Shown: piece by piece, positions 1-62,063 of the stretch
Layout: every line of letters begins with the position of its first letter
Numbering within the stretch: position 1 is the stretch's first letter
Source: Escherichia phage AV125
Strand: one strand, 5' to 3'
DNA: 64,000 nt
Sequence record: OR352955.1
The notes under the pieces: generated by a model
Databases searched by the model: none
What the model was told of the DNA's origin: nothing
The model's input: the letters and a program-made list of their open reading frames with translations, nothing else
Program-made: the position numbers and the translations under genes

Positions 1-1
1 T

Positions 2-313
2 CATGAAGGTAATTTTATTGAAAACTTAGACGATTATGATTTTTCTCCTAGCGCGGACGAACGGATCGCCCAGGATGTAACAGCCTTTATTAATGCTAAT
101 CTTGCCGCTATCTCTGAGGCAATGAGCGACGGCGCAACAGCCAACCAGATCGGGAATGATTTACATTTTACCCGTAACGGTCACGGCGTAGGCTTTTGGG
201 ATCGCCCTGAAATATACACCACTAACACGGCGAACCGCCTAACCAATGCAGCTAAGTTTATGCCGAACGTGTCGGCTTACATTGGTGAAGATAATTTGAT
301 TTATATTGAATAA
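2..313 (+). CDS. hypothetical protein, 3' portion (gene begins upstream of window)
   Basis: Reading frame is open from position 2 with no stop until 313; track ORF 122..313 is the tail of it. Confidence 0.5.
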   Translation, partial: HEGNFIENLDDYDFSPSADERIAQDVTAFINANLAAISEAMSDGATANQIGNDLHFTRNGHGVGFWDRPEIYTTNTANRLTNAAKFMPNVSAYIGEDNLIYIE

Positions 314-319
314 AAAGTA

Positions 320-347
320 TTGACACAGATCGCCAGTGTGCTAATAT
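320..347 (+). promoter_or_regulatory. sigma70-like early promoter (TTGACA-N16-TAATAT)
   Basis: TTGACA at 320-325, TAATAT at 342-347; followed by CCACGTAGGGC element shared with promoter at 1629. Confidence 0.55.
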
Positions 348-394
348 TTACCACGTAGGGCGGCAATGGTGCCGCCGATAATGAGGAAAGTAAA

Positions 395-694
395 ATGGAA
401 ACTATCGCTATTGTTACCGTAGAAAAACTGGTTGTTGGTGATGTATTCGCGTTAATGGTGCCTAACAGCAGCAAGCTGGGCGCTTATGAAGTAATGGATC
501 ATAAAAATGAATCATTTGGCGACGGTTGCACAATGGCGGTAAAATCTTTAAAGGATGGAATCATCCGCCAGGCTAACTGGCACAAAGGGAATCAAGTCGG
601 TTTAATATCAGCTAATTTCTTGCCAGAAGAGCAAACGTTAGACCAACTATCAGGCGGTAAGACGTTAGCCGAACTACTGGAAACAGCGATCTAA
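395..694 (+). CDS. hypothetical protein
   Basis: 99-aa ORF with GAGGAAAG RBS upstream; no recognisable motif. Confidence 0.55.
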   Translation: METIAIVTVEKLVVGDVFALMVPNSSKLGAYEVMDHKNESFGDGCTMAVKSLKDGIIRQANWHKGNQVGLISANFLPEEQTLDQLSGGKTLAELLETAI

Positions 695-738
695 TCAACA
701 AAGGGGCGGCAACGCCCCACATCAGAAAGGAAAAGATT

Positions 739-975
739 ATGAGTATTGCAACAGTATTAAACGCCGTTAAAACCGCTGAATCATCCGGCTTGCATGTTGA
801 GCTTATAGATCAACCAGGTGGCGATCTCCTTGTCCAGGTTTACCCGCCGAAAGTAGGGGATGATTATTATTGGGCTTATTCTGATACGTTCGAACAAGTA
901 GACACGAAAGCGATCACGGCTTTTATTTTAAAAGCTATTGAAGAAAATAACTTTCATCATAACATCAATCAATAA
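739..975 (+). CDS. hypothetical protein
   Basis: 78-aa ORF, RBS AAGGAAAAG; preceded and followed by GC hairpins (GGGGCGGCAACGCCCC, GCGGGGCGGTAACGCCCC). Confidence 0.55.
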   Translation: MSIATVLNAVKTAESSGLHVELIDQPGGDLLVQVYPPKVGDDYYWAYSDTFEQVDTKAITAFILKAIEENNFHHNINQ

Positions 976-1029
976 ACCATAAGCGGGGCGGTAACGCCCC
1001 ATTAAACGCAATAGGAAGAGGATAGACGC

Positions 1030-1320
1030 ATGAAAAAGATGATCGCAGTAGTTGCCCTGGTTGTTGGTATTAACGCGCCTGTACTGGCTAATGAGTTGCC
1101 AGAATCCATCACGCTAACCGATATCAACGCAATAAACCGGATCGGCGTTAATTATCGCCTATGCCTTGCCGCTAAAACTTTCCAGGACGGCACGACAGAA
1201 TACCACGGATTCGAGGGTATCCGCTGCGGTGAGCTTGCACGCGACCTTAAGGAAGATCCAGACCTTGAGGCCATACCGATGACCGTAAACGGTAAAGCTT
1301 ACGTAAACCGCCAACAATGA
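1030..1320 (+). CDS. secreted or periplasmic protein (N-terminal signal peptide)
   Basis: 96 aa; N-terminus MKKMIAVVALVVGINAPVLA is signal-peptide-like; RBS GGAAGAGG. Confidence 0.55.
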   Translation: MKKMIAVVALVVGINAPVLANELPESITLTDINAINRIGVNYRLCLAAKTFQDGTTEYHGFEGIRCGELARDLKEDPDLEAIPMTVNGKAYVNRQQ

Positions 1321-1451
1321 GAAAGGTAATCATCACAATGGGGATCATAGTAGCGACACTGGCGCTTATCCCCTTCATGGTTGAATATGTGCTGATCAGT
1401 GTTGTCCTGGTAGTCAGTGACCTATTGGAAACGGTTGGCAACTGGTTTTAA
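1317..1451 (+). CDS. small hydrophobic membrane protein (44 aa)
   Basis: ATG overlaps upstream stop (ATGA); translation MRKVIITMGIIVATLALIPFMVEYVLISVVLVVSDLLETVGNWF is one predicted TM segment; below track size cut-off. Confidence 0.4.
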   Translation: MRKVIITMGIIVATLALIPFMVEYVLISVVLVVSDLLETVGNWF

Positions 1452-1628
1452 AAATAAGAAAAACAGGACTTGTTTTTGTTCTGTTTTTTGTTATACTTAT
1501 TGAACGGGCGGCACCTGGAAGCAGGGGAAGATAATCACCGGAAGACCCCGCTATATATTGATAACTAACGCCTATCAAACAACAAAACATCAAAGGAATA
1601 AACTATCAAATCTTTACAATTCTACCTA

Positions 1629-1657
1629 TTGACACCGGATCACGCTTACACTATTAT
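1629..1657 (+). promoter_or_regulatory. sigma70-like early promoter (TTGACA-N17-TATTAT)
   Basis: TTGACA 1629-1634, TATTAT 1652-1657, then ATCACGTAGGGC; near-identical to promoter at 320. Confidence 0.6.
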
Positions 1658-1703
1658 TTATCACGTAGGGCAAACAATTTTAAACGGTAAACGAGGAATC
1701 ACC

Positions 1704-2087
1704 ATGAGCAATATCATCAACCTGGCAGCGACTGTAAACGGTAAAGACTTTAACGGCGCTGTAGACCGTGATCCTATGTGGTGCTTGTCAGTGTTTAAAG
1801 GCGATCTGGTTGAAGTTAGAACAACCGAAGGTTATAGCGATGATTATAAATGCGAGATTCATTTACATAATTGGTACACGGGTAAAACTTATGCGCTGAA
1901 TCACGCGTTTATCGGGAAAATTGAATATCGCGAGATGATCGACGATGAAACGGGGCAAGATTTTAGCGAAAACGTTTATATTCGTTCCGAGACATTAGCC
2001 GAACGTTTGATCGAGAAAATGAAAGCAAAAAATAAAATTAATTTATCTCATTGGATTGATATAACAAATGATCCGGCTTATCAGTAA
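1704..2087 (+). CDS. hypothetical protein
   Basis: Track ORF 1629..2087 would overlap the promoter; internal ATG at 1704 has RBS GAGGAA (MSNIINLAATVNGK...), 127 aa. Confidence 0.55.
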   Translation: MSNIINLAATVNGKDFNGAVDRDPMWCLSVFKGDLVEVRTTEGYSDDYKCEIHLHNWYTGKTYALNHAFIGKIEYREMIDDETGQDFSENVYIRSETLAERLIEKMKAKNKINLSHWIDITNDPAYQ

Positions 2088-2103
2088 ATAACATTTCATA
2101 CCA

Positions 2104-2130
2104 GGGCGCATCAAGCGCCCTTTCTTTTTG
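2104..2130 (+). terminator. rho-independent terminator
   Basis: GGGCGC-atcaa-GCGCCC hairpin followed by TTTCTTTTT. Confidence 0.7.
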
Positions 2131-2134
2131 CCCG

Positions 2135-3648
2135 AATAATGTTGATAGCTTTCGCCTATGAAAAACCGACACAGAACAAAACTGAATAAATCACGGTATC
2201 GAGCTAATCGACCATTAAACGAATAACCATACATCCCAGGGCAACAGGCTGTTAGAGAGCTATTTAGAGCGGTTAAAATCGATCAACAACCAACAACAAA
2301 CCATCAAAAACACCCTTTTACCTCTTTTCTAGTGCAATGATAACCATTATCATCTATCATTGATTATCTATTCAATATAAGTGCATAACTATAATGTTGA
2401 TAATAGTTCGCAACAACTAACCAACAAACAACATAAAACAATAAGCAAACTAATCATAATCAAAGGAATAATAGCAAGATGACTGATAACGACAAACAAT
2501 CAAACCATGATGAATATTAAACAAGATAACGATAACACGACAAAACAACCAACTAACGAACAATAACAAACGAAACCATTAAAAGATCAACTATTAGCAA
2601 AATAGTGTATATTGCCATAATAGTGACTGAATGAAATCATTACAAAACGAATCATTCCAAGGATCATCATTAGCACGCTACGCCGGACACGTAGCGAGCT
2701 AATAATAAGCCAACTACACCCCAACAATCATAACCATCGGTGATGGTTATTTCTTGTTACTGCGTAGCTTGCAATAATTGCAAGCGTAATGACGCTTACA
2801 CTTATTGCGCTGGCTTATTATTAGCATTATATGTAATTACTAAGATCATAACATTAGCGCAATAACAATAATCATTGTAATAGTTACAAGATGAGATCAT
2901 TAGCAAGATGAATAATTGCACGTAGCAACATGAGCGAATAGCGACAGGTTGCATAGTGTGCACATAGTGTATAAACATACAAGAAAATAAAGGCTAATCT
3001 TTTGGGGGCGAATACTATCGCTACGCGATATGTTGAGCACCTTCTCTTAAACGTAAATAAAATCAGAATAATCTTGATTTATTTTAGTTTTTATGTTAAT
3101 AAACGTTTAAATAATAATCATTCTCATATAAATAATAGTCTGCTTGTCATGAGCGGGATCAGTTGACAATGTTCCGTCATATGATGAAGTTGCCAAACCA
3201 TTGATAAATAAGTGTTTGTGTGATTTATAATCAAGTGGCCCACCTTGTCGCTACGTTGGTATGAGCCTTGCATAAGTCATTGAATACGAATGATAATTAT
3301 TCTCATTCGTATGATATTTGGGAATTGTCGCTGCGTGGACCTGACGGCCCGAAAATTCGCGTTAAGCACTTCTTACGTATGCGCCATGATTTTTGCCATA
3401 TGATATTGATTCTATTAGATATTCTTGCCATGATTGCCATGAAACAGGGTGTCCCGAAATAATCTCTCCCCGTAGATATTTTGGGTTACTTTTTATACAA
3501 GAGTGGGGTGTCAAAAATAATCGGTATATATAGGATAATTGATAGGAATCCCCTATGATAATTCGATTGTAATTCCCTAAGATTGATCGTATGATGTTGG
3601 TGATTGATGATTGCCATGAAAGATGGCTAACGATGAGAGGAGATTGTC
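2135..3648. other. 1.5-kb ORF-free region with strand compositional skew and short direct and inverted repeats
   Basis: No plausible ORF; 2280-2620 is A/C-rich and G-poor on the plus strand; recurring ATTAGC, TATGAT(A/G)TTG, GATTGCCATGAAA and GGGTGTC-N3-AAATAATC motifs; palindromes at about 2675-2705 and 3285-3325. Confidence 0.6.
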
Positions 3649-3993
3649 ATGCAAGAGAGTAAAAATGTTCCGTTGAGTAGTTTACGTCTAATGAAGTTTT
3701 ACAAAGCTTGGCTTGCTGGTGAGGTAGAAGGTCACACAACGAGTGGTTTGTGCATATGTTTGATTAAGTATGTAGAGGGAACATACCCTGATGAACTGTT
3801 ACCTCGTCTACAACAAGAGATGAAATCACAGTTTATTGGTGCAGGATTGGATTACAATTTCCCGTTTAATGAAGGTGGTTATGAGGAATACACCTTTGAA
3901 CATAAAAAACATATTTGCCATAAAAACAAACATCGTATACAATGGGTGCTAGATAGAATTCAAGATTATGAAGGAGAGAAAGATGACAAATAG
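3649..3993 (+). CDS. family A small protein (paralog 1 of 7)
   Basis: 114 aa; motifs FYKAWLAG, TSGLCICL, DYNFPFN, RIQWVLDRI shared with six other ORFs. Confidence 0.7.
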   Translation: MQESKNVPLSSLRLMKFYKAWLAGEVEGHTTSGLCICLIKYVEGTYPDELLPRLQQEMKSQFIGAGLDYNFPFNEGGYEEYTFEHKKHICHKNKHRIQWVLDRIQDYEGEKDDK

Positions 3994-4351
3994 TATTCCG
4001 TTGAGCAGTGCAACATTGCTTCGCTTCTATAAAGCATGGATTGCCAACTATCCTGCAATGAATCGCACAACGAGTGGCTTATGTGGTTGTCTGGTAGACT
4101 ATGTAGATGATTTTGTTGGTGATACACCTAGAGAAGAAGATAGAAAATGGCGTGATCATTTGTTGGACCGTTTGAAATATGAAATGAGGAAACAATTTAC
4201 ATGTGCAGGACTGGACTACAATCTTCCGTTCAATGCAGATTGCATGGATTACCTTTCAGAGTGTATAAACTTGGCGTGTCATACCAACACGTTACGTCTT
4301 CAGTGGGTGAAAGATCGGATTGAAGATGCAAATAATGCTTGCATTGAATAA
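3983..4351 (+). CDS. family A small protein (paralog 2 of 7)
   Basis: Start moved to ATG 3983 (RBS GGAGAG); FYKAWIAN, TSGLCGCL, DYNLPFN, RLQWVKDRI. Confidence 0.7.
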   Translation: MTNSIPLSSATLLRFYKAWIANYPAMNRTTSGLCGCLVDYVDDFVGDTPREEDRKWRDHLLDRLKYEMRKQFTCAGLDYNLPFNADCMDYLSECINLACHTNTLRLQWVKDRIEDANNACIE

Positions 4352-4400
4352 AGATGTTTGTATAATGGATGACATAACAGATAGCCAATGAGGAGATGAA

Positions 4401-4610
4401 ATGAAGAATTTGAAAACTGTCACAATGTTCTTGACTGATCCTACACGTGTGCAAGCACTGGCTAAAGCCAGCCGTGTAGCTGTAGAATTCCAAAACTTTA
4501 AGCCGTCCGTTGTGACAGGCAGTGAAACGTGTGTTATCGATTTCATTAACGAATACTTCCGAGGGAATCCGGTTGGTCGTTACTTTATTAAGGGTCTGAA
4601 GGATGCATAA
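4401..4610 (+). CDS. hypothetical protein
   Basis: 69-aa ORF, RBS GAGGAG. Confidence 0.5.
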   Translation: MKNLKTVTMFLTDPTRVQALAKASRVAVEFQNFKPSVVTGSETCVIDFINEYFRGNPVGRYFIKGLKDA

Positions 4611-4833
4611 CATGAAACGCATGAAAATTCGTATTGAGAATGATGGTGGTTATAAAGGATTGGCACATGCAAAATTTCCACTTGTGTTGGAAGCTACTGT
4701 GGAATACAGTGGGCTTGCTCATGTGCGATTCTCGAAGATGATGGAAGTGCAGGAATGGTTTTGGGACGAGATAGATGCACGAGAAGGGGAAGATTATGTT
4801 TTCTTTCCTCACGAATATGAAATTGTCTATTAA
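4603..4833 (+). CDS. hypothetical protein (paralog of 8920..9141)
   Basis: 76 aa; C-terminal EWFWDE...EGEDYVFFPHE matches EWFEED...EGCDYVFFSDE in 8920..9141. Confidence 0.5.
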   Translation: MHNMKRMKIRIENDGGYKGLAHAKFPLVLEATVEYSGLAHVRFSKMMEVQEWFWDEIDAREGEDYVFFPHEYEIVY

Positions 4834-4836
4834 GGG

Positions 4837-5085
4837 TTGTGTGCAATGATCACACCACAACAGAATGAAGCAGCAATGGATCTTCTCGATAGTTTGTATT
4901 TCGATAACTGGTACTCTGAATGTGAATGGATGAATATGCAAACTCTGAAAGAGAAGACAGAAGCGTTGATTACAGTAGATCAATTTCTTGCAGAGACGGA
5001 AAGAATGAATTATGATATGGCATCTCGCGCACGACGCGTTTCCATTTTCAATAAAATGTTAGCATTATGGGGAGGTAGAAAATGA
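4837..5085 (+). CDS. hypothetical protein
   Basis: 82-aa ORF in compact array. Confidence 0.45.
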   Translation: MCAMITPQQNEAAMDLLDSLYFDNWYSECEWMNMQTLKEKTEALITVDQFLAETERMNYDMASRARRVSIFNKMLALWGGRK

Positions 5086-5543
5086 GACAACCATCTATAC
5101 TGGAAGCGCATGTGCAATGTGTTGTAGATTATGTCAAAGAACACTCAAGTTTATTAAATGTAACCTGTGCAGTGCAAAATGATGTAGGCATTGTCTGTGT
5201 GCAACATATCTTATCTGAAACTCGTTATGAAGTATTTCGTGCCACGTTGTTTGGATGTGATCGAGTGCATGTAAACTTCCTGGACTCCAATTATCGTTAT
5301 GCTTTAGAAAATATTGATGATTATCTTCCTTGCTCTCCGACAGGATATGTAATGGTAACAGCAAACGAAGTAACACCAAGCAACAGTGAACGGGAAGCTT
5401 TGTTACGGAAGAAAATACGCCAACTGAAAATGCTGATGGAAATGCAAGAAGAGATTGAAAAAGAACTGAAAGAAGATTTTGGTATGCTTCCAAAAGACGC
5501 TTTGAAATGGTATGATGAACTAGGAGGAGAGAGCAATGTTTAA
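5082..5543 (+). CDS. hypothetical protein
   Basis: 153-aa ORF, start overlaps upstream stop; C-terminal charged coiled-coil-like segment. Confidence 0.55.
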   Translation: MRQPSILEAHVQCVVDYVKEHSSLLNVTCAVQNDVGIVCVQHILSETRYEVFRATLFGCDRVHVNFLDSNYRYALENIDDYLPCSPTGYVMVTANEVTPSNSEREALLRKKIRQLKMLMEMQEEIEKELKEDFGMLPKDALKWYDELGGESNV

Positions 5544-5994
5544 AGAAGGTCATGTCTACCGTTTCCAGGATGAGGATTATATGCGACTATATTCTACCTT
5601 TGATAACAGTATTGCGGCTATCATTGGAGAGAATTTTTTCGAGGTGTTGAGCACTGATGCAAATGGTAATATCTTGTCAATGGTTGTAATAGGTATGAGA
5701 GATGGTATTATCACTGCTGGTGATGGGGATCGTTACATAATCAATTCTGCTCATATAGATTATTTTGTTGACGGTGGTGTTCGTGGTGGTCGTGGAAAAC
5801 CCCAAGAAGAACCTGTTGATACAACAAAAGAAGAGTGGTATGTTGTAATGACTGATGACACCTGTATTTCTGGATTTGAAAGTTATGAAGAAGCTTTGAA
5901 AGAAGCAGCAGAGCATAAAATGGCTAATCCTACAGAAGAGGTTGAAGTTTATAAACGTATGGTTGTTGCTACCATCGGTGTATCTTTTGTTTAA
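5536..5994 (+). CDS. family B protein (tandem paralog 1 of 3)
   Basis: N-terminus MFKEGHVYRFQDED shared with next two genes (MFKVGFVYNFKSED, MFKANAVYCFKSKA); internal I(I/T)(E/A)AG motif. Confidence 0.6.
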   Translation: MFKEGHVYRFQDEDYMRLYSTFDNSIAAIIGENFFEVLSTDANGNILSMVVIGMRDGIITAGDGDRYIINSAHIDYFVDGGVRGGRGKPQEEPVDTTKEEWYVVMTDDTCISGFESYEEALKEAAEHKMANPTEEVEVYKRMVVATIGVSFV

Positions 5995-6006
5995 AAGGGG
6001 AATGTT

Positions 6007-6792
6007 ATGTTTAAAGTAGGTTTTGTTTATAATTTCAAATCGGAAGATACCAAAAAGAATTTTGGTAAAGCTAGTATTGGTAACGCTTTCTTTGTAGGTT
6101 GCATTCAAGATAGCAAGTTTAAAGTTTTGGATGTTGATTTTCTTGGTTCTGTATCTAAGGTGAAGGTATTAGACACAAATAAAATCATCGAAGCTGGTTC
6201 TGGGCTTTTCCCTGAAGGTTATAAGCTTGTAAGTTGTATGGATTATACTCGTTTTGAAGAACATACTCCTGAAGATTATGAAGATTCTCCTACAGGAGGC
6301 TGTGTCTTTGTAGAAGGTGGTGTCTATAAGTTTGCAAGTGAACAAGATCGTAAGCTTTTCGCCAATTATATTGACGGCGGACAAACGACAAACAATGTAA
6401 ACCGAAAAATTTCCGATCTTATTGGCGATGATCCTTTCGTGATCACAAAGATGGTTGGACAAGATGTAACAGCAATCCGTAGGCTTGTATGTAATACAAA
6501 TCATGTAGCAGGTGAAGGCTGGTTCAAGGAAGCTTGTGCGCTGCTAATCAAAAGCGATAACCCTTATTTTAAAAATATTAAAGATGTTGTTGAGCCTAAA
6601 CAAGAGGAATCCGCAGCGAATTTTAAACACTATGCTATTGTTAAAGGTATGAATGTCCAACTGGTGTCACATTCTTACGAAGAGATCGCCACAGAAGCAA
6701 AAAAGATGAAAGAAGAATACCCAATTTCTACTGTTGAGATCTATGAGCGTATTGGTGTTGTTAGTATTGAGCCTACTGCGGTAATAAAATAA
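6007..6792 (+). CDS. family B protein (tandem paralog 2 of 3, longer)
   Basis: 261 aa; N-terminal domain paralogous to 5536 and 6802 genes. Confidence 0.6.
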   Translation: MFKVGFVYNFKSEDTKKNFGKASIGNAFFVGCIQDSKFKVLDVDFLGSVSKVKVLDTNKIIEAGSGLFPEGYKLVSCMDYTRFEEHTPEDYEDSPTGGCVFVEGGVYKFASEQDRKLFANYIDGGQTTNNVNRKISDLIGDDPFVITKMVGQDVTAIRRLVCNTNHVAGEGWFKEACALLIKSDNPYFKNIKDVVEPKQEESAANFKHYAIVKGMNVQLVSHSYEEIATEAKKMKEEYPISTVEIYERIGVVSIEPTAVIK

Positions 6793-6801
6793 GGAGCTAT
6801 T

Positions 6802-7239
6802 ATGTTCAAAGCTAATGCTGTTTACTGTTTCAAAAGCAAAGCTGCATGTGAAGCTTTCTCTACAATCTCTGATGAAAATTTCAAAATGGCAGCTTTGATT
6901 GAAGGGTCTTGTTTCCGCGTCGAAGATGTTAGTGAATCAGGATCTGTTTGCTCGTTGACTTTATTGGACAGCGGAGATATTATTGAAGCTGGACAGTATC
7001 CGTTCAGAAGTTGGGAGATATTGTTAGCTCGTGGAGAGCGTAACTTTTTTATGTGCGTGTCTGCGGGGGAAGTTGTGAAAGAAACTAAGGATGTTTCTGT
7101 TTACAATTCTGAATTTATAAGTTATAGTGAGTATCAACATCTGGAAGGCATTGTTGGTCACTTGTTATCTCTGATTGACATTGAATGTGACTTGCCTGAA
7201 TCATTGAAAGAAGAGTTGAAAGCATTAGATCTGCTGTAA
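6802..7239 (+). CDS. family B protein (tandem paralog 3 of 3)
   Basis: 145 aa; MFKANAVYCFKSKA...DIIEAG. Confidence 0.6.
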   Translation: MFKANAVYCFKSKAACEAFSTISDENFKMAALIEGSCFRVEDVSESGSVCSLTLLDSGDIIEAGQYPFRSWEILLARGERNFFMCVSAGEVVKETKDVSVYNSEFISYSEYQHLEGIVGHLLSLIDIECDLPESLKEELKALDLL

Positions 7240-7266
7240 TGTTCCGCACAACGAAAGGAGAATAAA

Positions 7267-7566
7267 ATGAATCTGACCGAACAGTTACGCCGTATTGCAA
7301 AAGAAGCTTCCTTCAACTTCCCTGTTGAAGAAGTGATCGAGACATGTTTTGCTGAAGCACGAGCGGGAAACTCTTCAAGAAATTTCACGCCATCTGATTT
7401 TGGTCTGGATAATTCCCCTACCCACCCAGGGGAGATCTACAATCAGGTGAAGTGGATGGATGAAGCAGTAGCAATTCTTCGTGAGCGTGGGCTTATTGTT
7501 TATAAAGAAATGGATCTGAACGGGGCATACGAGTGGATCACTATTGATTGGTCGGAGGTGAAATAA
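7267..7566 (+). CDS. hypothetical protein
   Basis: 99-aa ORF, RBS AAGGAG. Confidence 0.55.
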   Translation: MNLTEQLRRIAKEASFNFPVEEVIETCFAEARAGNSSRNFTPSDFGLDNSPTHPGEIYNQVKWMDEAVAILRERGLIVYKEMDLNGAYEWITIDWSEVK

Positions 7567-7775
7567 TGGTTACTATCACATTGACAGTTACACAAGAGCA
7601 AGCAGAAGAATTACGTGATGCAGTGGCATACATGGGACGCTCTTATTATATGCCTTATAAATCACAAGATGTTTTTGCTACAGCCATTGAGAAAGCTTTA
7701 AACAAATATCGAGAAACTCATGCCGTTCCTAAAGTATCGGCGGAAGAGTTTGGCACTTGGCACGAAGTTCACTGA
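7566..7775 (+). CDS. hypothetical protein
   Basis: Start taken at ATG 7566 (RBS GGAGGTG); 69 aa. Confidence 0.5.
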   Translation: MVTITLTVTQEQAEELRDAVAYMGRSYYMPYKSQDVFATAIEKALNKYRETHAVPKVSAEEFGTWHEVH

Positions 7776-7785
7776 GGAGGTTTCG

Positions 7786-8019
7786 ATGAAAGGTAACAAG
7801 ATGAAAGTTAATCAAGTGCCGAGCGCATACACTTTGTGGCTTGCGCGAGCGTTACACCAGACGATCAAAAACCCTAAGAAGCCAATGAAGAGCGGGAAGA
7901 AGTTTATGTCTAAGGGCAAAACAACCTTTGGCTTCACTCGTATGTCTGTTAAGATGAAAAGACTGGGGTACAAGCCAAACTACGCTCGTTACCCTTCTGA
8001 ATACAACTGGTTTGACTAA
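7786..8019 (+). CDS. basic small protein
   Basis: Start at ATG 7786 (RBS GGAGG); Lys/Arg-rich 77 aa. Confidence 0.5.
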   Translation: MKGNKMKVNQVPSAYTLWLARALHQTIKNPKKPMKSGKKFMSKGKTTFGFTRMSVKMKRLGYKPNYARYPSEYNWFD

Positions 8020-8032
8020 AAGGAGGAAGATT

Positions 8033-8209
8033 ATGGCTACTTTTCAACAATTGAAAGATGTTTCACGTTTAGTAAGAAAAATCCGAGAAGCAGACGCTGC
8101 TGTGCGGAATGCATTAACGCCAGCAGAGCGTGAAGATCTTGAAGAGGAGGTTAAAACAGCCGAGAATGCTTTTGCTGTGTATCTTTCAACACTGTACACA
8201 GGGGGTTAA
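8033..8209 (+). CDS. hypothetical protein
   Basis: Start at ATG 8033 (RBS AAGGAGGAAG); 58 aa. Confidence 0.5.
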   Translation: MATFQQLKDVSRLVRKIREADAAVRNALTPAEREDLEEEVKTAENAFAVYLSTLYTGG

Positions 8210-8524
8210 ATGTCAGAAGAACTTAAAGAATTTTATCAAGCCTATCATAATTGGCTGTTAGCTGGTGCTCCAGATAATAATCCTTTCTGGCACGATAAAG
8301 GTTTGTGCAGTTGCCTCTATCTTTGGTCTGGTGGTTATGATGACCTAAATTATGAAATGCAAATGCAATTTCGAGAAGCAGGATTGTCTGAAGAATACCC
8401 GTTTGATGACGGAGACTGGTTTAAATATGATTTTGCACAAAGAAACGGGCTATTGCATTTGAATGCTGCCCGTATAAGATGGGTAAAAGATCATGCTACA
8501 CAGGAGGATGTGCAATGCCAATAG
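8210..8524 (+). CDS. family A small protein (paralog 3 of 7)
   Basis: FYQAYHNWLLAGAP, KGLCSCL, EEYPFD, RIRWVKDH. Confidence 0.7.
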   Translation: MSEELKEFYQAYHNWLLAGAPDNNPFWHDKGLCSCLYLWSGGYDDLNYEMQMQFREAGLSEEYPFDDGDWFKYDFAQRNGLLHLNAARIRWVKDHATQEDVQCQ

Positions 8525-8715
8525 TGTTTAGTTTCTTGGTAATTGTTATGGTTGTTCTTTTCGCGGCATGGCTTTGGGATTTTGACCCAGGAGCAGCGCA
8601 GCAAAGAGCTACAGACTGGAAAGAACAATGTATTGTGCTCAAACATGAACGAAATGCAGAGAAATTTCTTGACCTGGAGTGTGATCGCCTTGTAAGATAC
8701 AAGCAAGACAAATAA
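8515..8715 (+). CDS. small membrane protein
   Basis: Start at ATG 8515; MPIVFSFLVIVMVVLFAAWLW is one predicted TM segment. Confidence 0.45.
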   Translation: MPIVFSFLVIVMVVLFAAWLWDFDPGAAQQRATDWKEQCIVLKHERNAEKFLDLECDRLVRYKQDK

Positions 8716-8729
8716 CCTTGAGGTGCAAA

Positions 8730-8918
8730 ATGGTAATTGAGATTAAACTTGAGTATGCTGGCGCTGTTGCTCTGATCGCACAAATGCTTGGAGCAAAGAT
8801 TGAAGAAGTGTATATCAACGCTTGGAGCGTAGAGATTGATGTTCCTATGGACAACATTGCTAATCGCTTGCTGGTGGCAGAGTGTGAACGCACCAACATA
8901 ATCTACAAAGGAGCATAA
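8730..8918 (+). CDS. hypothetical protein
   Basis: Start at ATG 8730 (RBS GAGGTG); 62 aa. Confidence 0.45.
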   Translation: MVIEIKLEYAGAVALIAQMLGAKIEEVYINAWSVEIDVPMDNIANRLLVAECERTNIIYKGA

Positions 8919-8919
8919 T

Positions 8920-9141
8920 ATGAAAATTAGAGTTTGTGATGTATTGGGTTATGTTGGTTTTGAGAATGTTCAGATTCCTTTTGTTGTTGAAGCACATCTT
9001 GTTAGTGAGGATATGACAACATTCTTTGTTACGATAGAAGAAATGTCCAAAGTTGAGGGATGGGAGTGGTTTGAAGAAGATGTTTGGGAAGGTTGTGATT
9101 ACGTATTCTTCTCTGATGAAGTGAATGTTCTTTCGGAGTAG
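8920..9141 (+). CDS. hypothetical protein (paralog of 4603..4833)
   Basis: Shares EWF...DYVFF C-terminal motif with 4603..4833. Confidence 0.5.
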   Translation: MKIRVCDVLGYVGFENVQIPFVVEAHLVSEDMTTFFVTIEEMSKVEGWEWFEEDVWEGCDYVFFSDEVNVLSE

Positions 9142-9143
9142 GT

Positions 9144-9350
9144 ATGTCTTGTTTTACAAAAGCAGTATCCATATGTAAGAAACAGTATGAAAGTGATTAC
9201 GGAATATTTAATATTCCAGCGGATCATACAGAGTATTGTTCATGTGGTGGCAGAATGAAGAAAACAGTGATTTATGCGGATAATGGAGATGAACTTGTTC
9301 CGGTTATTGTTTGCAAAGCTTGTCATTCTGTTAAAACATTAAAAGCGTAA
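9144..9350 (+). CDS. small Cys-rich protein
   Basis: 68 aa; CSCGG ... CKAC spaced cysteine pairs. Confidence 0.45.
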   Translation: MSCFTKAVSICKKQYESDYGIFNIPADHTEYCSCGGRMKKTVIYADNGDELVPVIVCKACHSVKTLKA

Positions 9351-9445
9351 GGAGTCGGGACACCCGACGATTGGAGCTAAAAATTTTGCGTACAACCCTT
9401 TTCGCCCAACAGGGGCGCGTCGGGTAAATAAAGAGGAGAGTTTAT

Positions 9446-9844
9446 ATGAAAAAGATCATCGTAGGTTTCTTGTTACTCATTGCATCACTTGGAACAGCAA
9501 ATGCGTCTCAAGTTTATGAGTGTGTGTCAGATGTGGTTGTTAAAAATCTGAAAGGTGAAGTGATTTCTGGTCCTAAGAAAATGGCTTCTGTTGTCATTAA
9601 TAAAGATAACTCCTTTATCCTTAAAAATTCAGGCGGTGCTTTGATGAGTGGCATTCTGCAATACACAGGAGAAAAAAGTAAAGATGGTAGTGCTATGTAC
9701 GGTTCACAACAATTTATTGGCACTACTGAAGTTGTGATGATGCGCACAGAGTATCGAGACACTTTGGCTTGGTTTGCATTTCTAAAAAATGATAAAACAA
9801 TAACGAATGTTCTTACTCTAGAAGCTGATTGTACGCAACGATAA
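9446..9844 (+). CDS. secreted protein (signal peptide)
   Basis: 132 aa; MKKIIVGFLLLIASLGTANAS signal-peptide-like; RBS AGAGGAGAG. Confidence 0.6.
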   Translation: MKKIIVGFLLLIASLGTANASQVYECVSDVVVKNLKGEVISGPKKMASVVINKDNSFILKNSGGALMSGILQYTGEKSKDGSAMYGSQQFIGTTEVVMMRTEYRDTLAWFAFLKNDKTITNVLTLEADCTQR

Positions 9845-9854
9845 GGGAGTATTT

Positions 9855-10301
9855 ATGACTAAAGTGCGACATTATGCTGTAAACTGCAATGATGTTTGGC
9901 GTTTGTGTCCTGATGATCCGACAGAAGGCACATTTGTAAGATATGAGGATTATAAAGAGTTATCGGATGCTGTGATCGCATTGTTAACTGATATCCGTTC
10001 ACGTTATCCAGGACAAGATTTCACTTGCCCTCACATCAAACTTCTTGCTTGTCTGGTAGAAGGTGAGAAAGAAGTGGAAGATGGCTTCAAGCGTGTAGAG
10101 TATCAAGGTGAAACTTTAGAGGTTCCTGAATTTGTTAATTATATTGCAACAGATTCGAGTGGCGAGCGTTATGGCTACAGCCATAAGCCAGAGATTCCTG
10201 ATTGGATTCCCGCTTGGAGATATTCCGTTAGTACCGGAGACTATATCTTCCTTGGTGTAGGTAGTAGTAAGGATTGGCGTTTCTCTTTGACAGAGGTTTA
10301 A
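9855..10301 (+). CDS. hypothetical protein
   Basis: 148-aa ORF. Confidence 0.55.
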   Translation: MTKVRHYAVNCNDVWRLCPDDPTEGTFVRYEDYKELSDAVIALLTDIRSRYPGQDFTCPHIKLLACLVEGEKEVEDGFKRVEYQGETLEVPEFVNYIATDSSGERYGYSHKPEIPDWIPAWRYSVSTGDYIFLGVGSSKDWRFSLTEV

Positions 10302-10305
10302 TAAT

Positions 10306-10569
10306 ATGGAAGAAACATTGCCAGCAGCATATCGTTTGAATGATGAGCGTATTTGGGAGTGGACCGACGTTTCTTGTTTTTACCCTGAAATAGTTCAATA
10401 TTGGCGAGCGAAAGGGTGTGTTGTAGTTATCAACCCTTGTGGACCAGTAGATGAAGATTGCTTGTATCTCGATGGGAAGTGGCACAGTTATTGTCGCTGG
10501 GCTTTTGAGTGGATGTGTAAAGAAGATCTCCCAGAGGGTTGGGAGTATCCAAAAGCAAATAGGAGATAA
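10306..10569 (+). CDS. hypothetical protein
   Basis: 87-aa ORF, Trp/Cys-rich. Confidence 0.5.
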   Translation: MEETLPAAYRLNDERIWEWTDVSCFYPEIVQYWRAKGCVVVINPCGPVDEDCLYLDGKWHSYCRWAFEWMCKEDLPEGWEYPKANRR

Positions 10570-10570
10570 T

Positions 10571-10933
10571 ATGTCTAAAGATTTTGTTGAAGTATTTGTC
10601 AAAGATGAAGAAACTGGTTTAGGCACGGGTTTCATTTGTGAAGAAACTTTTAAGCGTGAACAAGAAAAAGCTATTCTTATGCACCGCTATGATCATGCAT
10701 TAGAACAATGGAAAAATGCAGAACAAAAATGCAAAAACCTTTATGCAGAAAATAGAAAACTACAAGATCAAATGGAGTTGTTAGCTATCAGTTTACGATC
10801 TCTCATTTTGGCTGTAGAAGACGGTTTTAAAAATCCAGATGGTTTTCCTGTGAGCGATATTGAACATGATTTGTATCTTGCTCGTGGTGCTTACTTTTAT
10901 GTTAAACAGAAGTCTGTAGAAGGAGAGAAGTGA
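10571..10933 (+). CDS. hypothetical protein
   Basis: Start at ATG 10571 (RBS GGAG); the track ORF 10451..10933 would overlap the upstream gene in another frame. Confidence 0.5.
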   Translation: MSKDFVEVFVKDEETGLGTGFICEETFKREQEKAILMHRYDHALEQWKNAEQKCKNLYAENRKLQDQMELLAISLRSLILAVEDGFKNPDGFPVSDIEHDLYLARGAYFYVKQKSVEGEK

Positions 10934-11130
10934 TGGAAGAAAAACTGGAACGTATTATCGAGTTAGCCATGTCTATTGGCTACGACGATTGTTTTCTCCA
11001 AACTATTGGAGAAACACAGAACGATTACGACTCTTGGGTGAAAGAGTTGGAAGAACTCAAAACTTCCTTGATTGCTGACTTTGCTGAAGCAGAGGATAAA
11101 GCGGATCGTTACAACTATCTGTGTCGATAA
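10930..11130 (+). CDS. hypothetical protein
   Basis: 66-aa acidic ORF. Confidence 0.45.
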   Translation: MMEEKLERIIELAMSIGYDDCFLQTIGETQNDYDSWVKELEELKTSLIADFAEAEDKADRYNYLCR

Positions 11131-11134
11131 ACCT

Positions 11135-11163
11135 TGACATTTCTTTTATGTATGGTATACATA
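11135..11163 (+). promoter_or_regulatory. possible sigma70-like promoter
   Basis: TTGACA at 11135-11140 with TATACA-like -10 about 16-17 bp downstream. Confidence 0.35.
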
Positions 11164-11192
11164 CATTATCAACGTGAGCAAGGTGGTGTAAT

Positions 11193-11465
11193 ATGAATAA
11201 AGATCGGTTTCTTTCTTTAGTCGCGGAAGCGCCTTTTGATGTTCTTGGGGTGAGATTATGGAAAGACAGAAACTATGGGTTAGATGTTCAAACATATTCT
11301 CTTTGGTTGGTTGGGGAGCACAGCTTAGATGAAAGCTTGTGCATGGGTAGGGATTCTCGTTCCCTTTGTTTAAAGTTTAGAAGCTTAGAACGCGCAAACA
11401 AAGAGCAAGAAAAACTAACGAGGTGGCTAAATGAAAACAAGCGCAGGGTTGATGGAGTTTTATAA
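11193..11465 (+). CDS. hypothetical protein
   Basis: 90-aa ORF, RBS AAGGTGG. Confidence 0.5.
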   Translation: MNKDRFLSLVAEAPFDVLGVRLWKDRNYGLDVQTYSLWLVGEHSLDESLCMGRDSRSLCLKFRSLERANKEQEKLTRWLNENKRRVDGVL

Positions 11466-11757
11466 AATTTATCTAGCATGGATTGATGTTGGTGCTCCTG
11501 ATGGTAAACCTTTTCGGCGGGATTGTGGTTTGTGTGCCAACTTGTTCGATTATGTGCACAGAGGTAATTACAATCCCCTTATAACAACCTTGTCAGATGA
11601 AATGCACGCACAGTTTTACCACAAAGGGTTGAGTCAAGAATTACCCTTCAATGAGAACTACGATGCATATGTCTTAGAATCAGATGCAGGGGTATGTCAC
11701 CTGAACGTGGACAGGATTAATTGGGTAAGAGATCGTATTGCAGAGGAGGATGAATAA
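11431..11757 (+). CDS. family A small protein (paralog 4 of 7)
   Basis: FYKIYLAWIDVGAP, CGLCANL, ELPFN, RINWVRDRI. Confidence 0.7.
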   Translation: MKTSAGLMEFYKIYLAWIDVGAPDGKPFRRDCGLCANLFDYVHRGNYNPLITTLSDEMHAQFYHKGLSQELPFNENYDAYVLESDAGVCHLNVDRINWVRDRIAEEDE

Positions 11758-11984
11758 TGTCGGATTATAACTGGTATGAACTTGAAGCTGTTTGTCAGTT
11801 TTATGATTCAATAGTTCTGCGTGATCCAATCTGTCAAGAATTAAGTCGCCGTGCAAGTGCATTGGCAATCCGTGTTAAAATAAACGGTTGGAACGCAGAT
11901 TTGGAAAAAGAGTTGGCATTTCTCTTAGAAAACACGCGGGTCTTCCGCAAAGTGTTCCCTGAATGGTTTGAGATGGAGGAATAA
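11757..11984 (+). CDS. hypothetical protein
   Basis: 75-aa ORF, ATGA start-stop overlap. Confidence 0.5.
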   Translation: MSDYNWYELEAVCQFYDSIVLRDPICQELSRRASALAIRVKINGWNADLEKELAFLLENTRVFRKVFPEWFEMEE

Positions 11985-11986
11985 CC

Positions 11987-12202
11987 ATGTGGATTGTCCG
12001 TCTTAAATATGATGGTCCAGGTTCTTGGGTGCATAATGTTTGTGGTTGCGATTCCGAAGAAGCAGCACACAAAGCAGGAAGAGCAGTAAGTGCCTTCTAT
12101 AATGACAAACCTCTTTGTTTAGAGATGGCAGGTGTGGTGAGCATGAGTATGTTTGAATACTACTCCTATGATATTAAAAAACATGAAGGAGAGTGGAAAT
12201 GA
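11987..12202 (+). CDS. hypothetical protein
   Basis: 71-aa ORF. Confidence 0.5.
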   Translation: MWIVRLKYDGPGSWVHNVCGCDSEEAAHKAGRAVSAFYNDKPLCLEMAGVVSMSMFEYYSYDIKKHEGEWK

Positions 12203-59894: not shown

Positions 59895-59966
59895 GGCCCT
59901 GTAGCTCAATGGGAGAGCTGTCGGCTCATAACCGATAGGTAGCTGGATCGAAACCAGCCAGGGCCA
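59895..59966 (+). tRNA. tRNA-Met (anticodon CAT; could also be Ile2 or initiator)
   Basis: Cloverleaf folded by hand: acceptor GGCCCTG/CAGGGCC, anticodon loop CTCATAA, T-loop ATCGAAA; CCA encoded. Confidence 0.8.
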
Positions 59967-59971
59967 CCAAA

Positions 59972-60043
59972 GTCTTTATGGTGTAATGGATAGCACAGGA
60001 GTCTTCTAAACTCTTAGTCAAGGTTCGATTCCTTGTAAAGACA
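59972..60043 (+). tRNA. tRNA-Arg (anticodon TCT)
   Basis: Acceptor GTCTTTA/TAAAGAC, anticodon loop CTTCTAA, T-arm CAAGG-TTCGATT-CCTTG; CCA encoded. Confidence 0.8.
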
Positions 60044-60242
60044 CCAGAACATTTTAACATGAATTAGCTCAAGTGATTTGAACCCACTACTGATCATGGT
60101 GGCAGAGAATGAGGCAAGTATGTCAGACATTATAAACAAAGGCCACGGTTATATTAGAAGACATAAATGCTCGAAGAGCACCGTTCGTGGAGAACGGGGG
60201 TTGGTGGAGTCACCATTCATGGTAAAATGTTTTAAAAAACTA

Positions 60243-60271
60243 TTGACAACAAACATTATTTTATGTTAGAT
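60243..60271 (+). promoter_or_regulatory. sigma70-like promoter within tRNA cluster
   Basis: TTGACA 60243-60248, 17-bp spacer, TTAGAT; 10 nt before tRNA-Ser. Confidence 0.55.
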
Positions 60272-60280
60272 TATAAGTAT

Positions 60281-60368
60281 GGAAGGGCAAATCGATGTGG
60301 CGACGAAAACGGTCTTGAAAACCGCCGAGCTTGAAAGAGCCTTGGGAGTTCGACTCTCCCTCCTTCCG
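60281..60368 (+). tRNA. tRNA-Ser (anticodon TGA), class II
   Basis: Acceptor GGAAGGG/TCCTTCC, anticodon loop CTTGAAA, long variable arm, T-arm GGGAG-TTCGACT-CTCCC; CCA encoded. Confidence 0.8.
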
Positions 60369-60376
60369 CCAGATTA

Positions 60377-60459
60377 GGTAGATTGGTGAAATGGTAGCCA
60401 CGACAGTTTGCTAAACTGTAGTCGGAAACGGCGTGTAGGTTCGAGTCCTACATCTACCG
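60377..60459 (+). tRNA. tRNA-Ser (anticodon GCT), class II
   Basis: Acceptor GGTAGAT/ATCTACC, anticodon stem ACAGT/ACTGT, loop TTGCTAA, variable arm with GAAA loop; CCA encoded. Confidence 0.8.
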
Positions 60460-60461
60460 CC

Positions 60462-60592
60462 AAGTTCTTTTTAATGTAGCTTACTTTAGCAGAGTAAATC
60501 TTCGGCAAGTGGCGGTAACCACTTTACCGATACCTCATAGTTAGTGGTGTGAACACTGGCTATTTTAAAAAGAATTTAAATATTAGTATTTA
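60462..60592 (+). ncRNA. candidate small RNA between tRNAs
   Basis: 131-nt spacer with no tRNA fold and no ORF; internal GTGG...CCAC complementarity; T4 carries small stable RNAs at the equivalent place. Confidence 0.3.
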
Positions 60593-60677
60593 GGTGAGTT
60601 AATTCCGTAGGGGTAGCGGGGCAGACTGTAAATCTGTTATCATTGCGATTCGGGTGGTTCGACTCCATCACTCACCA
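60593..60677 (+). tRNA. tRNA-Tyr (anticodon GTA), class II
   Basis: Closely parallels E. coli tRNA-Tyr: GCAGACTGTAAATCTG anticodon arm, long variable arm, acceptor GGTGAGT/ACTCACC; CCA encoded. Confidence 0.8.
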
Positions 60678-60686
60678 CCAAATTAA

Positions 60687-60769
60687 GATGAGTTGGCTGA
60701 ATGGTTTAAGCGGCGGACTGTTAATCCGTGTTCGAAAGAACAATATAGGTTCGAATCCTATACTCATCG
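60687..60769 (+). tRNA. class II-type tRNA with GTT (Asn) anticodon by loop geometry
   Basis: Perfect 7-bp acceptor GATGAGT/ACTCATC, T-arm ATAGG-TTCGAAT-CCTAT, 3-bp D-stem, 15-nt variable arm (GTTC-GAAA-GAAC), anticodon loop CTGTTAA closed by GCGGA/TCCGT. Confidence 0.5.
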
Positions 60770-60779
60770 CCAGAATTAT

Positions 60780-60856
60780 GGACTTGTAGAGTTAAGGTAA
60801 ACCCCCAGTCGCCAATAGGCTTCTGGAATTGCAGGTATCGAATCCTGCCGAGTCCC
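60780..60856 (+). pseudogene. tRNA-like element with aberrant anticodon arm
   Basis: 7-bp acceptor GGACTTG/CGAGTCC and T-arm GCAGG...TCGAAT...CCTGC present, but no canonical 5-bp/7-nt anticodon stem-loop and no CCA. Confidence 0.3.
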
Positions 60857-60862
60857 AGCATT

Positions 60863-60934
60863 GCTCCTATAGTATAATGGCTATTACAACGGTTTTGTAA
60901 TCCGTGGATCTCTGTTCGATTCAGTGTGGGAGCA
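60863..60934 (+). tRNA. tRNA-Thr (anticodon TGT)
   Basis: Acceptor GCTCCTA/TGGGAGC, anticodon loop TTTGTAA with a 4-bp stem, T-loop TTCGATT; CCA encoded. Confidence 0.65.
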
Positions 60935-60937
60935 CCA

Positions 60938-61200
60938 ACACAACATTAAGAGCACTGTGATTGATCGTCGTATCCTGTGCACAAGGTCTGCTCGAAAGAC
61001 AGTGTTCTTAGTATTGTGTTGATCACAAAAAGAGTCACCCGAAACTTGACCGGAGTAGGGTTGGATGGGGCAAAATGAGAAGCGGCTCTCCCATCGACAG
61101 CAACGAAGAATAATATTTGACTTTGGTTTTGTATTATTTTAAGTTAGCTTACCGAACGTAGGGCTAGTCACCCAACGGGATACTCGTCACTGTCCCAATC
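60938..61200 (+). ncRNA. candidate structured RNA or spacer within tRNA cluster
   Basis: About 260 nt without ORF or tRNA fold; CACTGTG ... ACAGTG and other inverted repeats. Confidence 0.25.
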
Positions 61201-61210
61201 AATAAAAGTC

Positions 61211-61240
61211 TTGACAACAAATAGTAAAATGTAGTATAGT
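61211..61240 (+). promoter_or_regulatory. sigma70-like promoter within tRNA cluster
   Basis: TTGACA 61211-61216, 18-bp spacer, TATAGT; 11 nt before tRNA-Gly. Confidence 0.55.
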
Positions 61241-61251
61241 AAATATATATG

Positions 61252-61322
61252 GCGTTCTTGGTGTAGCGGTAGCATTCCGTCCTTCCAAGTCGGCGGCACG
61301 AGTTCGATCCTCGTAGAACGCT
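61252..61322 (+). tRNA. tRNA-Gly (anticodon TCC)
   Basis: Acceptor GCGTTCT/AGAACGC, anticodon loop CTTCCAA, T-arm ACGAG-TTCGATC-CTCGT; CCA encoded; D-arm not cleanly resolved by hand. Confidence 0.65.
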
Positions 61323-61423
61323 CCAAATTATTTAATAAAGGGTTGCCAGAAAACTTTCTCTTTTACTCATGGTTTTCTCCTTCTCTCACACTTCTTCTGG
61401 TTGCCCTTCATTAAATGATTTAT

Positions 61424-61496
61424 TGGTTTGTAGTGTAGTCCGGTAGCACACGACACTTTGACTGTCGTAGGTTTGGTTCAAATCCAGACAGACCAG
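61424..61496 (+). tRNA. tRNA-Gln (anticodon TTG)
   Basis: U1-A72 acceptor TGGTTTG/CAGACCA, anticodon stem CGACA/TGTCG, loop CTTTGAC, T-loop TTCAAAT; CCA encoded. Confidence 0.8.
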
Positions 61497-61592
61497 CCAT
61501 ATAACAAAGGTGAGTCACTACCTTAAGTGTGAAGTTAAAAACGAGGAGCCGCCGAACACTTTCTTTTGCGGTGTACCTTTAGAATGTTATCA

Positions 61593-61666
61593 CGGGACGT
61601 AGCACAGCTTGGTAGTGCGCTCGCTTTGGGAGCGAGAGGTCGAGTGTTCGAATCACTCCGTCCCGA
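61593..61666 (+). tRNA. tRNA-Pro (anticodon TGG)
   Basis: C1-G72 acceptor CGGGACG/CGTCCCG as in E. coli tRNA-Pro, D-stem GCAC/GTGC, anticodon stem CTCGC/GCGAG, loop TTTGGGA; CCA encoded. Confidence 0.85.
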
Positions 61667-61675
61667 CCAATTAAA

Positions 61676-61746
61676 TGTTTCGTAGTTCAATGGTAGAACC
61701 CACGACTGATAATCGTGAGACACAAGTTCGATTCTTGTCGAAACAA
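61676..61746 (+). tRNA. tRNA-Ile (anticodon GAT)
   Basis: Acceptor TGTTTCG/CGAAACA, D-stem GTTC/GAAC, anticodon stem CACGA/TCGTG, loop CTGATAA; CCA encoded. Confidence 0.8.
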
Positions 61747-61751
61747 CCAGT

Positions 61752-61821
61752 TTCCCGTTAGACTTACAGGATAAGAGTTCCACAGCTTATTGTGATGCTG
61801 GTTCGAATCCAGCACGGGATA
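61752..61821 (+). pseudogene. tRNA-like element with non-canonical anticodon region
   Basis: Acceptor TTCCCGT/ACGGGAT (6 of 7 pairs) and perfect T-arm GCTGG-TTCGAAT-CCAGC, but the central region only forms ATAAG/CTTAT with a 10-nt loop; no CCA. Confidence 0.3.
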
Positions 61822-61827
61822 CATAAT

Positions 61828-62044: not shown

Positions 62045-62063
62045 GCTATCTATTGAATAAAAC

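Follow-up and report, generated by a model that had tools for sequence, protein, structure and literature searches.

A tandem array of GoF-family genes in Escherichia phage AV125, one of them predicted to encode two barrels

Introduction

Three small genes that follow one another in Escherichia phage AV125 encode proteins with similar first residues. Do these proteins share only a start or an entire domain, to which family do they belong, and what might such a set of copies do for the phage? The genes lie in a stretch of 64,000 nucleotides of sequence record OR352955.1, referred to here as the window, and are named A (5536-5994), B (6007-6792) and C (6802-7239); all three are on the + strand. 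Over region 5000-7800 the window shares 98% identity with Escherichia phage vB_EcoM_Schickermooser as well as with further genomes of Phapecoctavirus (phAPEC8-like, Stephanstirmvirinae). We find that A, B and C are true paralogs and that they belong to the GoF family (T4 GoF/Frd.2 type), a family that is already known and partly annotated as such. We are confident of this membership and of the domain architecture described below.

T4 GoF (comC-alpha), Frd.2 and MotB.1 make up a family with a phage LSm-like fold (Kim et al. 2025, PMC12152347). GoF, a non-essential protein, is made early and in abundance; mutations in goF were recovered by selection for suppressors of host rho alleles, and the variant GoF(D25Y) stabilises T4 gene 41 mRNA post-transcriptionally (PMC12152347).

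Results

A, B and C share a complete N-terminal domain

The three open reading frames (ORFs) start with MFKEGHVYRF (A), MFKVGFVYNF (B) and MFKANAVYCF (C), and an I(I/T)(E/A)AG segment recurs in all of them at residues ~58-64, as GIITAG, KIIEAG and DIIEAG, respectively. Both features had been reported in a preliminary description of the locus made from the sequence alone, and both are present. The similarity reaches beyond the MFK start and spans the full N-terminal domain of ~85-90 amino acids (aa). BLASTP aligns B with C at 42% identity over 64 aa, A with B at 33% over 67 aa and A with C at 31% over 65 aa. Local-alignment scores were also compared with those of 2000 shuffles per pair, once with the full domain and once after removal of the first 10 residues. 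The full-domain z-scores among A, B and C are 10-17; without the first 10 residues they are 4.2 (A-B), 4.8 (A-C) and 11.3 (B-C), the observed score being reached by 7, 3 and 0 of the shuffles, respectively. Given that z stays at 4.2-11.3 once the start is removed, the likeness is not confined to the first few residues. Likewise, all three proteins match PHROG profiles 3710, 622, 5347 and 5804 across the N-terminal domain.

The preliminary description saw in these genes a second locally amplified family of the early block. They do form a second multi-copy family of true paralogs, separate from the phrog_2510 family at 3649-4351 and 8210-8524, but the amplification is not recent, the copies being 25-44% identical. 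A local hidden Markov model (HMM) found no further copy of the domain among the 667 ORFs of the window; the best other ORF, -45063_45641, scored E 0.019 against these 667 and was not counted as a copy. Comparison of copy number in related phages gives 2 to 4 such genes among Phapecoctavirus genomes.

B consists of a barrel followed by an A-type protein

How do the three proteins differ behind the shared domain? Protein A (152 aa, pI 4.4, net charge -15) has an N-terminal barrel (residues 1-84; 5536-5787, +), a disordered linker (residues 85-99; 5788-5832, +) and a C-terminal beta-beta-alpha-beta domain (residues 100-152; 5833-5991, +) that is homologous to the C-terminal domain of B. Protein C (145 aa, pI 4.4, net charge -13) combines an N-terminal barrel (residues 1-88; 6802-7065, +) with a modelled C-terminal helical hairpin (residues 107-145; 7120-7236, +) that is unrelated to the C-domain of A and B. 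PHROG 3710 covers residues 1-151 of A (E 5e-34), and PHROG 22975 spans the full length of C (E 7e-99).

The middle protein, B (261 aa, pI 5.4), had been described as carrying a 110-aa C-terminal extension. That description does not hold, as residues 98-261 of B align with all of A and the C-terminus is common to A and B. B therefore appears to hold a second, very divergent copy of the domain. Judged by these alignments, it is composed of barrel 1 (residues 1-88; 6007-6270, +), which is the copy nearest to C and to T4 GoF, a short acidic linker and a complete A-type protein. The latter would comprise barrel 2 (residues 100-196; 6304-6594, +), with an insertion of ~7-10 residues in its helical hairpin, a linker and an A-type C-terminal domain delimited by alignments (residues ~213-261; 6643-6789, +). 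PHROG 3710 matches B in two stretches, the better of them at 98-260 (E 1.5e-41), and the local HMM detects two domains in B. Barrel 2 aligns with the N-domains of A-type proteins, and residues 104-254 of B match residues 5-145 of phi92 gp003 by BLASTP at E 5.8e-11. Pairwise, barrel 2 gives z 4.5-4.9 against the other copies, values that become non-significant once the first 10 residues are removed. The C-terminal ~50 aa of B are homologous to the C-terminus of A (shuffle z 7.8); for the C-terminus of C, the corresponding z against the C-domains of A and B is 0.4 and -0.5.

The array proteins belong to the GoF family

In BLASTP searches barrel 1 of B matches T4 GoF at 33% identity over 51 aa (E 9e-8; shuffle z 13.1, and 9.9 without the first 10 residues) and C matches it at E 5e-4; A alone gives no significant match to T4 GoF. 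For profile comparison we used an alignment (A4) built from window and Stephanstirmvirinae sequences only, and hence GoF-free, because an earlier search (A2) contained GoF itself and was thus not independent. Aligned by hhalign with a profile of T4-like GoF proteins (A9), A4 yields a probability of 97.1% and E 6.8e-11 over 86 columns, the complete N-terminal domain. Against T4 Frd.2 the probability is 73% (E 3e-5), and against MotB.1 it is 1.9%, with no detectable similarity. PHROGs named goF (13003, 2980 and 8944) are matched weakly, and some GenBank records give homologs of B and C the name 'goF mRNA metabolism modulator'. Scans of A, B and C against Pfam, NCBIfam and PADLOC gave no meaningful match, and a profile search of PDB sequences returned only de novo designs at E ~1. 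With 104 columns, the hhalign match to Frd.2 (L007:4644-5030, T4 frd.2) does not stop at the barrel but takes in C-terminal sequence as well; GoF and Frd.2 end in short strand-plus-helix domains, and these might be truncated and distantly related to the A-type C-domain.

The resemblance to the T4 proteins (PMC12152347) goes further than a homologous N-terminal domain of ~90 aa. In both groups this domain leads via a flexible acidic linker into a C-terminal domain that varies, the proteins are acidic and of small size, some members are dispensable, and several paralogs lie near each other in one genome, T4 goF and motB.1 being ~1 kb apart. The predicted folds likewise agree, each with a five-stranded barrel, a helical hairpin after the first strand, and FeoA and IdeR among its PDB neighbours. 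Unlike their Tevenvirinae counterparts, the genes studied here belong to Stephanstirmvirinae (Phapecoctavirus) and are directly adjacent in one array; their C-terminal modules are beta-beta-alpha-beta (A and B) or a helical hairpin (C), and B would have two barrels in one polypeptide.

Predicted structures point to an SH3/LSm-like barrel

AlphaFold2 (AF2) models were made for A (from a 17-sequence alignment) and for C. They were chosen in place of B, for which one alignment (A5) split the barrel of the homologs between barrels 1 and 2, and another (A6) gave no coverage of barrel 2. The model of A has a mean predicted local distance difference test score (pLDDT) of 78 and places strand b1 at 6-10, helices at 13-20 and 24-30, b2 at 35-40, b3 at 46-51, b4 at 58-60, a helix at 71-76 and b5 at 77-82. 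Its C-terminal beta-beta-alpha-beta module at 102-140 is modelled at pLDDT 83-91, and residues 85-97 of the linker are disordered (pLDDT <50). The model of C (mean pLDDT 76) has the barrel elements in the same order at pLDDT about 90, a disordered linker at 90-106 (pLDDT <50) and helices at 108-126 and 133-141 with pLDDT 59-67. In both models the element order is b-a-a-b-b-b-a-b, and barrel pLDDT per 10 residues is 74-90 (A) and 77-92 (C). The N-terminal domain is thus predicted to be an SH3/LSm-like five-stranded beta-barrel. A Foldseek search of viral models returned 77 matches at E<=1e-3, mostly from T4-like phages and some genomes several times, among them the GoF model of VR7 at E 5.4e-6.

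Is this a canonical Sm/LSm protein of the Hfq type? We saw no Sm1/Sm2 motif by eye, no Pfam LSM or Hfq match at E<=1 and no PDB sequence match. Nor is the layout that of Hfq, in which an N-terminal helix directly precedes five strands, as the models begin with b1 and place a helical hairpin between b1 and b2. As to the hexameric or heptameric ring of such proteins, published AlphaFold 3 multimer models of GoF were not confident (PMC12152347). Compared with the wider SH3-like barrel superfold (FeoA, the DtxR/IdeR C-terminal domain, domain I of EF-P/eIF5A, KOW, Tudor and Sm/LSm), the array barrels have no detectable sequence-level relationship and are modelled with an extra b1-b2 hairpin and a helix before b5. 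The C-domain of A and B recalls the alpha/beta fold of ClpS and of the ribosomal L7/L12 C-terminal domain; it covers about half of ClpS at 13-16% identity with no sequence match, and a full ClpS core with the pocket of an N-degron adaptor was not found in it.

The duplications are old, and the family includes other multi-barrel proteins

A word-indexed homolog search with B alone returned two proteins only, and alignments were used as queries instead. An exhaustive HMMER search with the GoF-free profile, covering 1.84 billion representatives including metagenomes, gave 72 clusters (at 50% identity) at E<=1e-3; two of these, P0162 and P0184, proved on inspection of their sequences to be long repetitive proteins and false positives. 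Most of the inspected sequences are 140-175 aa long and have the layout of A. P0133, P0146 and P0154 have two barrels in tandem and P0141 and P0169 have three, and P0143 is a divergent homolog of C that retains the helical C-terminus. P0133 has the exact architecture of B at 27% identity, and the double-barrel fusion therefore seems to be old and maintained. Given this homolog and the 25-44% identity of the copies, the duplications and the fusion are both old. By tblastn against a phage collection, the A-type protein P0136 matches mainly ~150-kb myoviruses of the Stephanstirmvirinae type.

One relative in these phages is phi92 gp003, of the PHROG 3710 family (Stephanstirmvirinae and related ~150-kb myoviruses). 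It has the barrel, linker and beta-beta-alpha-beta domain of A and of B residues 98-261, to which it is 28-30% identical over its full length (E about 1e-11 to 1e-15). Its position matches that of the array, 3' of the gp001 homolog, and it lies ~1 kb from the left terminal repeat. Unlike the array, it is the only such gene in the 5.8 kb of phi92 inspected, where no two-barrel or C-type member is present.

A side observation concerns P0009 (141 aa, from an ENA contig of 1301 nt), whose N-terminal part resembles window protein 4603-4833 and is fused at 'EGWF' to B residues ~170-261. Either this is a genuine product of illegitimate recombination, with ~2 kb deleted, or the contig is an assembly chimera.

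Genes and domains of the array are shuffled among related phages

In tblastn searches of the phage collection the four types differ in how widely they occur. C is the most widely retained in Phapecoctavirus records (61 phage records at >=80% identity, 95-100% conserved in 58 of them), followed by A (57 records at >=90%), by a fourth paralog, D (24 records at >=95%), and by B (16 records at >=80%). The order of the array is D-A-B-C in ESCO37, A-B-C in the window, A-C in AV126 and hybrid-C in phAPEC8. Presence and absence of these genes vary among phages that are ~97% identical, and since B and D are absent from many near-identical phages, they are dispensable in nature.

Two kinds of change can be told apart. 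Whole-gene gains and losses fall exactly at the boundaries between ribosome-binding site and ATG. Within genes, the hybrid phAPEC8_0024 combines an N part that matches A at 99% identity with a C-domain that matches B at 100%, the last 52 residues of B being identical to its own; the recombination junction lies in the linker of A, and at the DNA level an 11-nt stretch, CAAGA(A/G)GAACC, is shared by both linkers. A second N/C mosaic is P0130, which joins a D-type barrel (95%) to a different C-domain (77% to P0135). It is very probable that the array undergoes both cassette and domain shuffling. What has happened recently, between phages that are closely related, is that whole cassettes were lost, gained and recombined.

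Several further observations touch on this variation. ESCO37 (L003:2037-2231) and AV126 (L006:2037-2231) carry a 64-aa ORF (MNKGTTVYLV...) between the upstream gene and the array; it is missing from the window (5543/5536), cleanly at the ribosome-binding-site/ATG boundary. In NC_052658.1 (nepoznato) positions 61978-62061 match the last 28 codons of A only, at 96% identity, which suggests another deletion variant of the array. Some matching records bear labels of hosts other than Escherichia: MG065650 and others ('Campylobacter phage B15/A145/A110a'), OP562383 ('Acinetobacter phage') and NC_047994 ('Klebsiella phage ZCKP1'). Identity is 97-99% for B15, the Acinetobacter record and ZCKP1 and only ~30% for A145 and A110a; the host labels of the near-identical records look doubtful.

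The array lies in a block of small, closely spaced genes

Genes A, B and C belong to a block of small, closely spaced + strand genes from ~3.6 kb to ~20 kb, in which GC skew is positive. A overlaps the preceding gene (5082-5543) by 8 nt, and gaps of 12 nt and 9 nt separate A from B and B from C. Each gene has a Shine-Dalgarno-like site 5-6 nt 5' of its ATG, all on the + strand: GGAGGAG at 5523-5529 for A, within the 3' end of the upstream gene; AAGGGG at 5995-6000 for B; and AAGGAG at 6791-6796 for C, overlapping the stop codon of B. Minus-strand ORFs that overlap the array (e.g. 5677-6108 and 6169-6504) were judged spurious because the + strand ORFs have homologs, ribosome-binding sites and confident folds and because the GC skew of the block is positive. 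Promoter and terminator scans gave consensus matches near shuffle expectation, which we do not count as evidence, and an Rfam scan of 1-12000 gave no match.

The upstream gene at 5082-5543 (+) shares 89% identity with phi92 gp001. The phi92 record annotates gp001 with a 'predicted transcription-repair coupling factor fold', and in one record (SKA64) the gene is called 'transcription-repair coupling factor'. It belongs to PHROG 14944 (unknown function) and has no Pfam-level support. If it truly had the Tudor-like fold of such a factor, the GoF-like genes would have a neighbour that also encodes a barrel-type protein.

Other small families populate the block. The PHROG 2510 paralogs (unknown function) at 3649-3993, 3968-4351 and 8210-8524 (+) carry an 'FYKAWL...GLC.CL' type motif and are presumably what the preliminary description called family A. 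The 76- and 73-aa proteins of 4603-4833 and 8920-9141 (+) look related by eye ('MKIR...' start, 'DYVFF...' end) and may be a third small paralog family; the first belongs to PHROG 15322. Over the window, GC skew is positive at 4-20 kb, negative at 22-58 kb and positive beyond 58 kb, and these sign changes, at ~21-22 kb and ~58 kb, are consistent with switches in transcription direction. Ten tRNA genes (Met, Arg, Ser, Asn, Thr, Gly, Gln, Pro, Ile and Met) are clustered at 59895-61906 (+).

Discussion

What might an array of GoF-like proteins do? The proteins may, by analogy with T4 GoF, serve in host takeover without being indispensable; they would influence what becomes of RNA once transcription has started, via mRNA stability or Rho-linked events. 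The barrel would be the module that recognises a target, the C-terminal module would provide a second contact or self-association, and different paralogs would address different targets. Whole genes are gained and lost exactly at gene boundaries, and recombination in the linkers between paralogs exchanges N- and C-terminal modules. All steps weighed together, we favour this account with some reserve. Its parts are not equally secure: an early, dispensable accessory role is reasonably probable, and a direct role in RNA metabolism is put forward tentatively, as a suggestion that we ourselves hold to be somewhat doubtful.

Several points weigh against the proposal. The early timing is something we infer from gene position and gene style, the phi92 ortholog lying near the terminal repeat. 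Wild-type GoF and MotB.1 had little effect on reporter RNA, and only the gain-of-function variant D25Y did (PMC12152347); neither D25 nor G84 of GoF is conserved in the alignment with A, B and C. The strongly acidic character of A and C (net -15 and -13) speaks against general RNA binding. Neither the models of A and C nor the Pfam scan shows canonical LSm features; the alignment positions that never vary among the paralogs hold M, F, Y, V, I and G residues, which look like core positions, and the paralog alignment revealed no conserved surface motif of basic or Sm type. In the exhaustive search with the GoF-free profile, T4 GoF was not visible at E<=1e-3 among the 18 of 72 sequences inspected. 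Finally, barrel 2 of B is a prediction drawn only from profile and ortholog alignments.

Could the barrels bind proteins rather than RNA, in the manner of SH3 or Tudor domains? The products would then be variable early host-takeover or counter-defence adaptors that act on host RNA polymerase, Rho, nucleases or defence proteins, and array content would track the hosts. A, C and GoF are acidic overall, and the structural neighbours found at the same Z include the C-terminal Tudor domain of PcrA/UvrD with an RNA polymerase lobe (7egs), CarD, VapX and FeoA. Proteins with two or three barrels recur (P0133, P0141, P0146, P0154 and P0169), as expected of multivalent binders. Phages that share ~97% identity differ in gene content, and their modules are shuffled; presence/absence variation together with module shuffling is the usual pattern of arms-race genes. 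In T4, the selection of goF mutations as suppressors of host rho alleles is in line with a protein target, but GoF pull-downs gave only GoF, as monomer and apparent dimer, and no host partner (PMC12152347). Also against this reading, the array proteins show no similarity to PADLOC models. Taken as a whole, we judge protein binding possible and rather unlikely. A bolder version, in which the barrel adaptors of the array form a toolkit under rapid reshuffling and each paralog and each barrel of B recognises a different host factor or defence component, seems to us improbable; if true, linker-mediated module swaps would create new specificities, and the GoF family would be a counter-defence or host-range determinant and not an RNA chaperone.

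Two further readings carry far less weight. The variable copy number, the dispensability in nature of at least B and D, the ease with which hybrid genes arise and the lack of a phenotype of the T4 homologs under laboratory conditions (PMC12152347) would all suit an array that is an evolutionary by-product, with redundant duplicates of no distinct function kept by chance in a recombination-prone region and B an accidental read-through fusion. Yet paralogs as old as these (25-44% identity) all retain intact ORFs and ribosome-binding sites, and a fold that is predicted with confidence. In 58 of 61 records C is conserved at 95-100%, P0133 keeps the two-barrel layout of B at 27% identity, and metagenomes hold 72 cluster representatives of the family at 50% identity (two of them repetitive false positives), all of which makes such a by-product very unlikely. 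Even less probable, to the point of being nearly negligible, is a role of the barrels as FeoA/DtxR-type SH3-like domains in metal (iron) sensing or in the regulation of its transport: FeoA is among the structural neighbours, but sequence identity to it is 4-13%, neither Pfam FeoA nor any other Pfam family is matched, no histidine is conserved across A, B and C, and GoF is without metal-coordinating histidines (PMC12152347).

The preferred reading thus remains that of accessory host-takeover factors that may act on RNA fate. The adjacent array, the double-barrel protein and the domain-swap hybrids are useful details, and they reveal no new system or mechanism. For database annotation the assignment is a correction, most such genes being labelled 'hypothetical protein'. 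GoF, found via rho-suppressor genetics, is a long-standing unsolved early protein of T4. Its barrel domain also occurs outside Tevenvirinae, as an adjacent array of 2-4 genes, and this array, with its conserved two-barrel fusion and its natural N/C domain-swap hybrids, offers natural variants for asking what the barrel binds.

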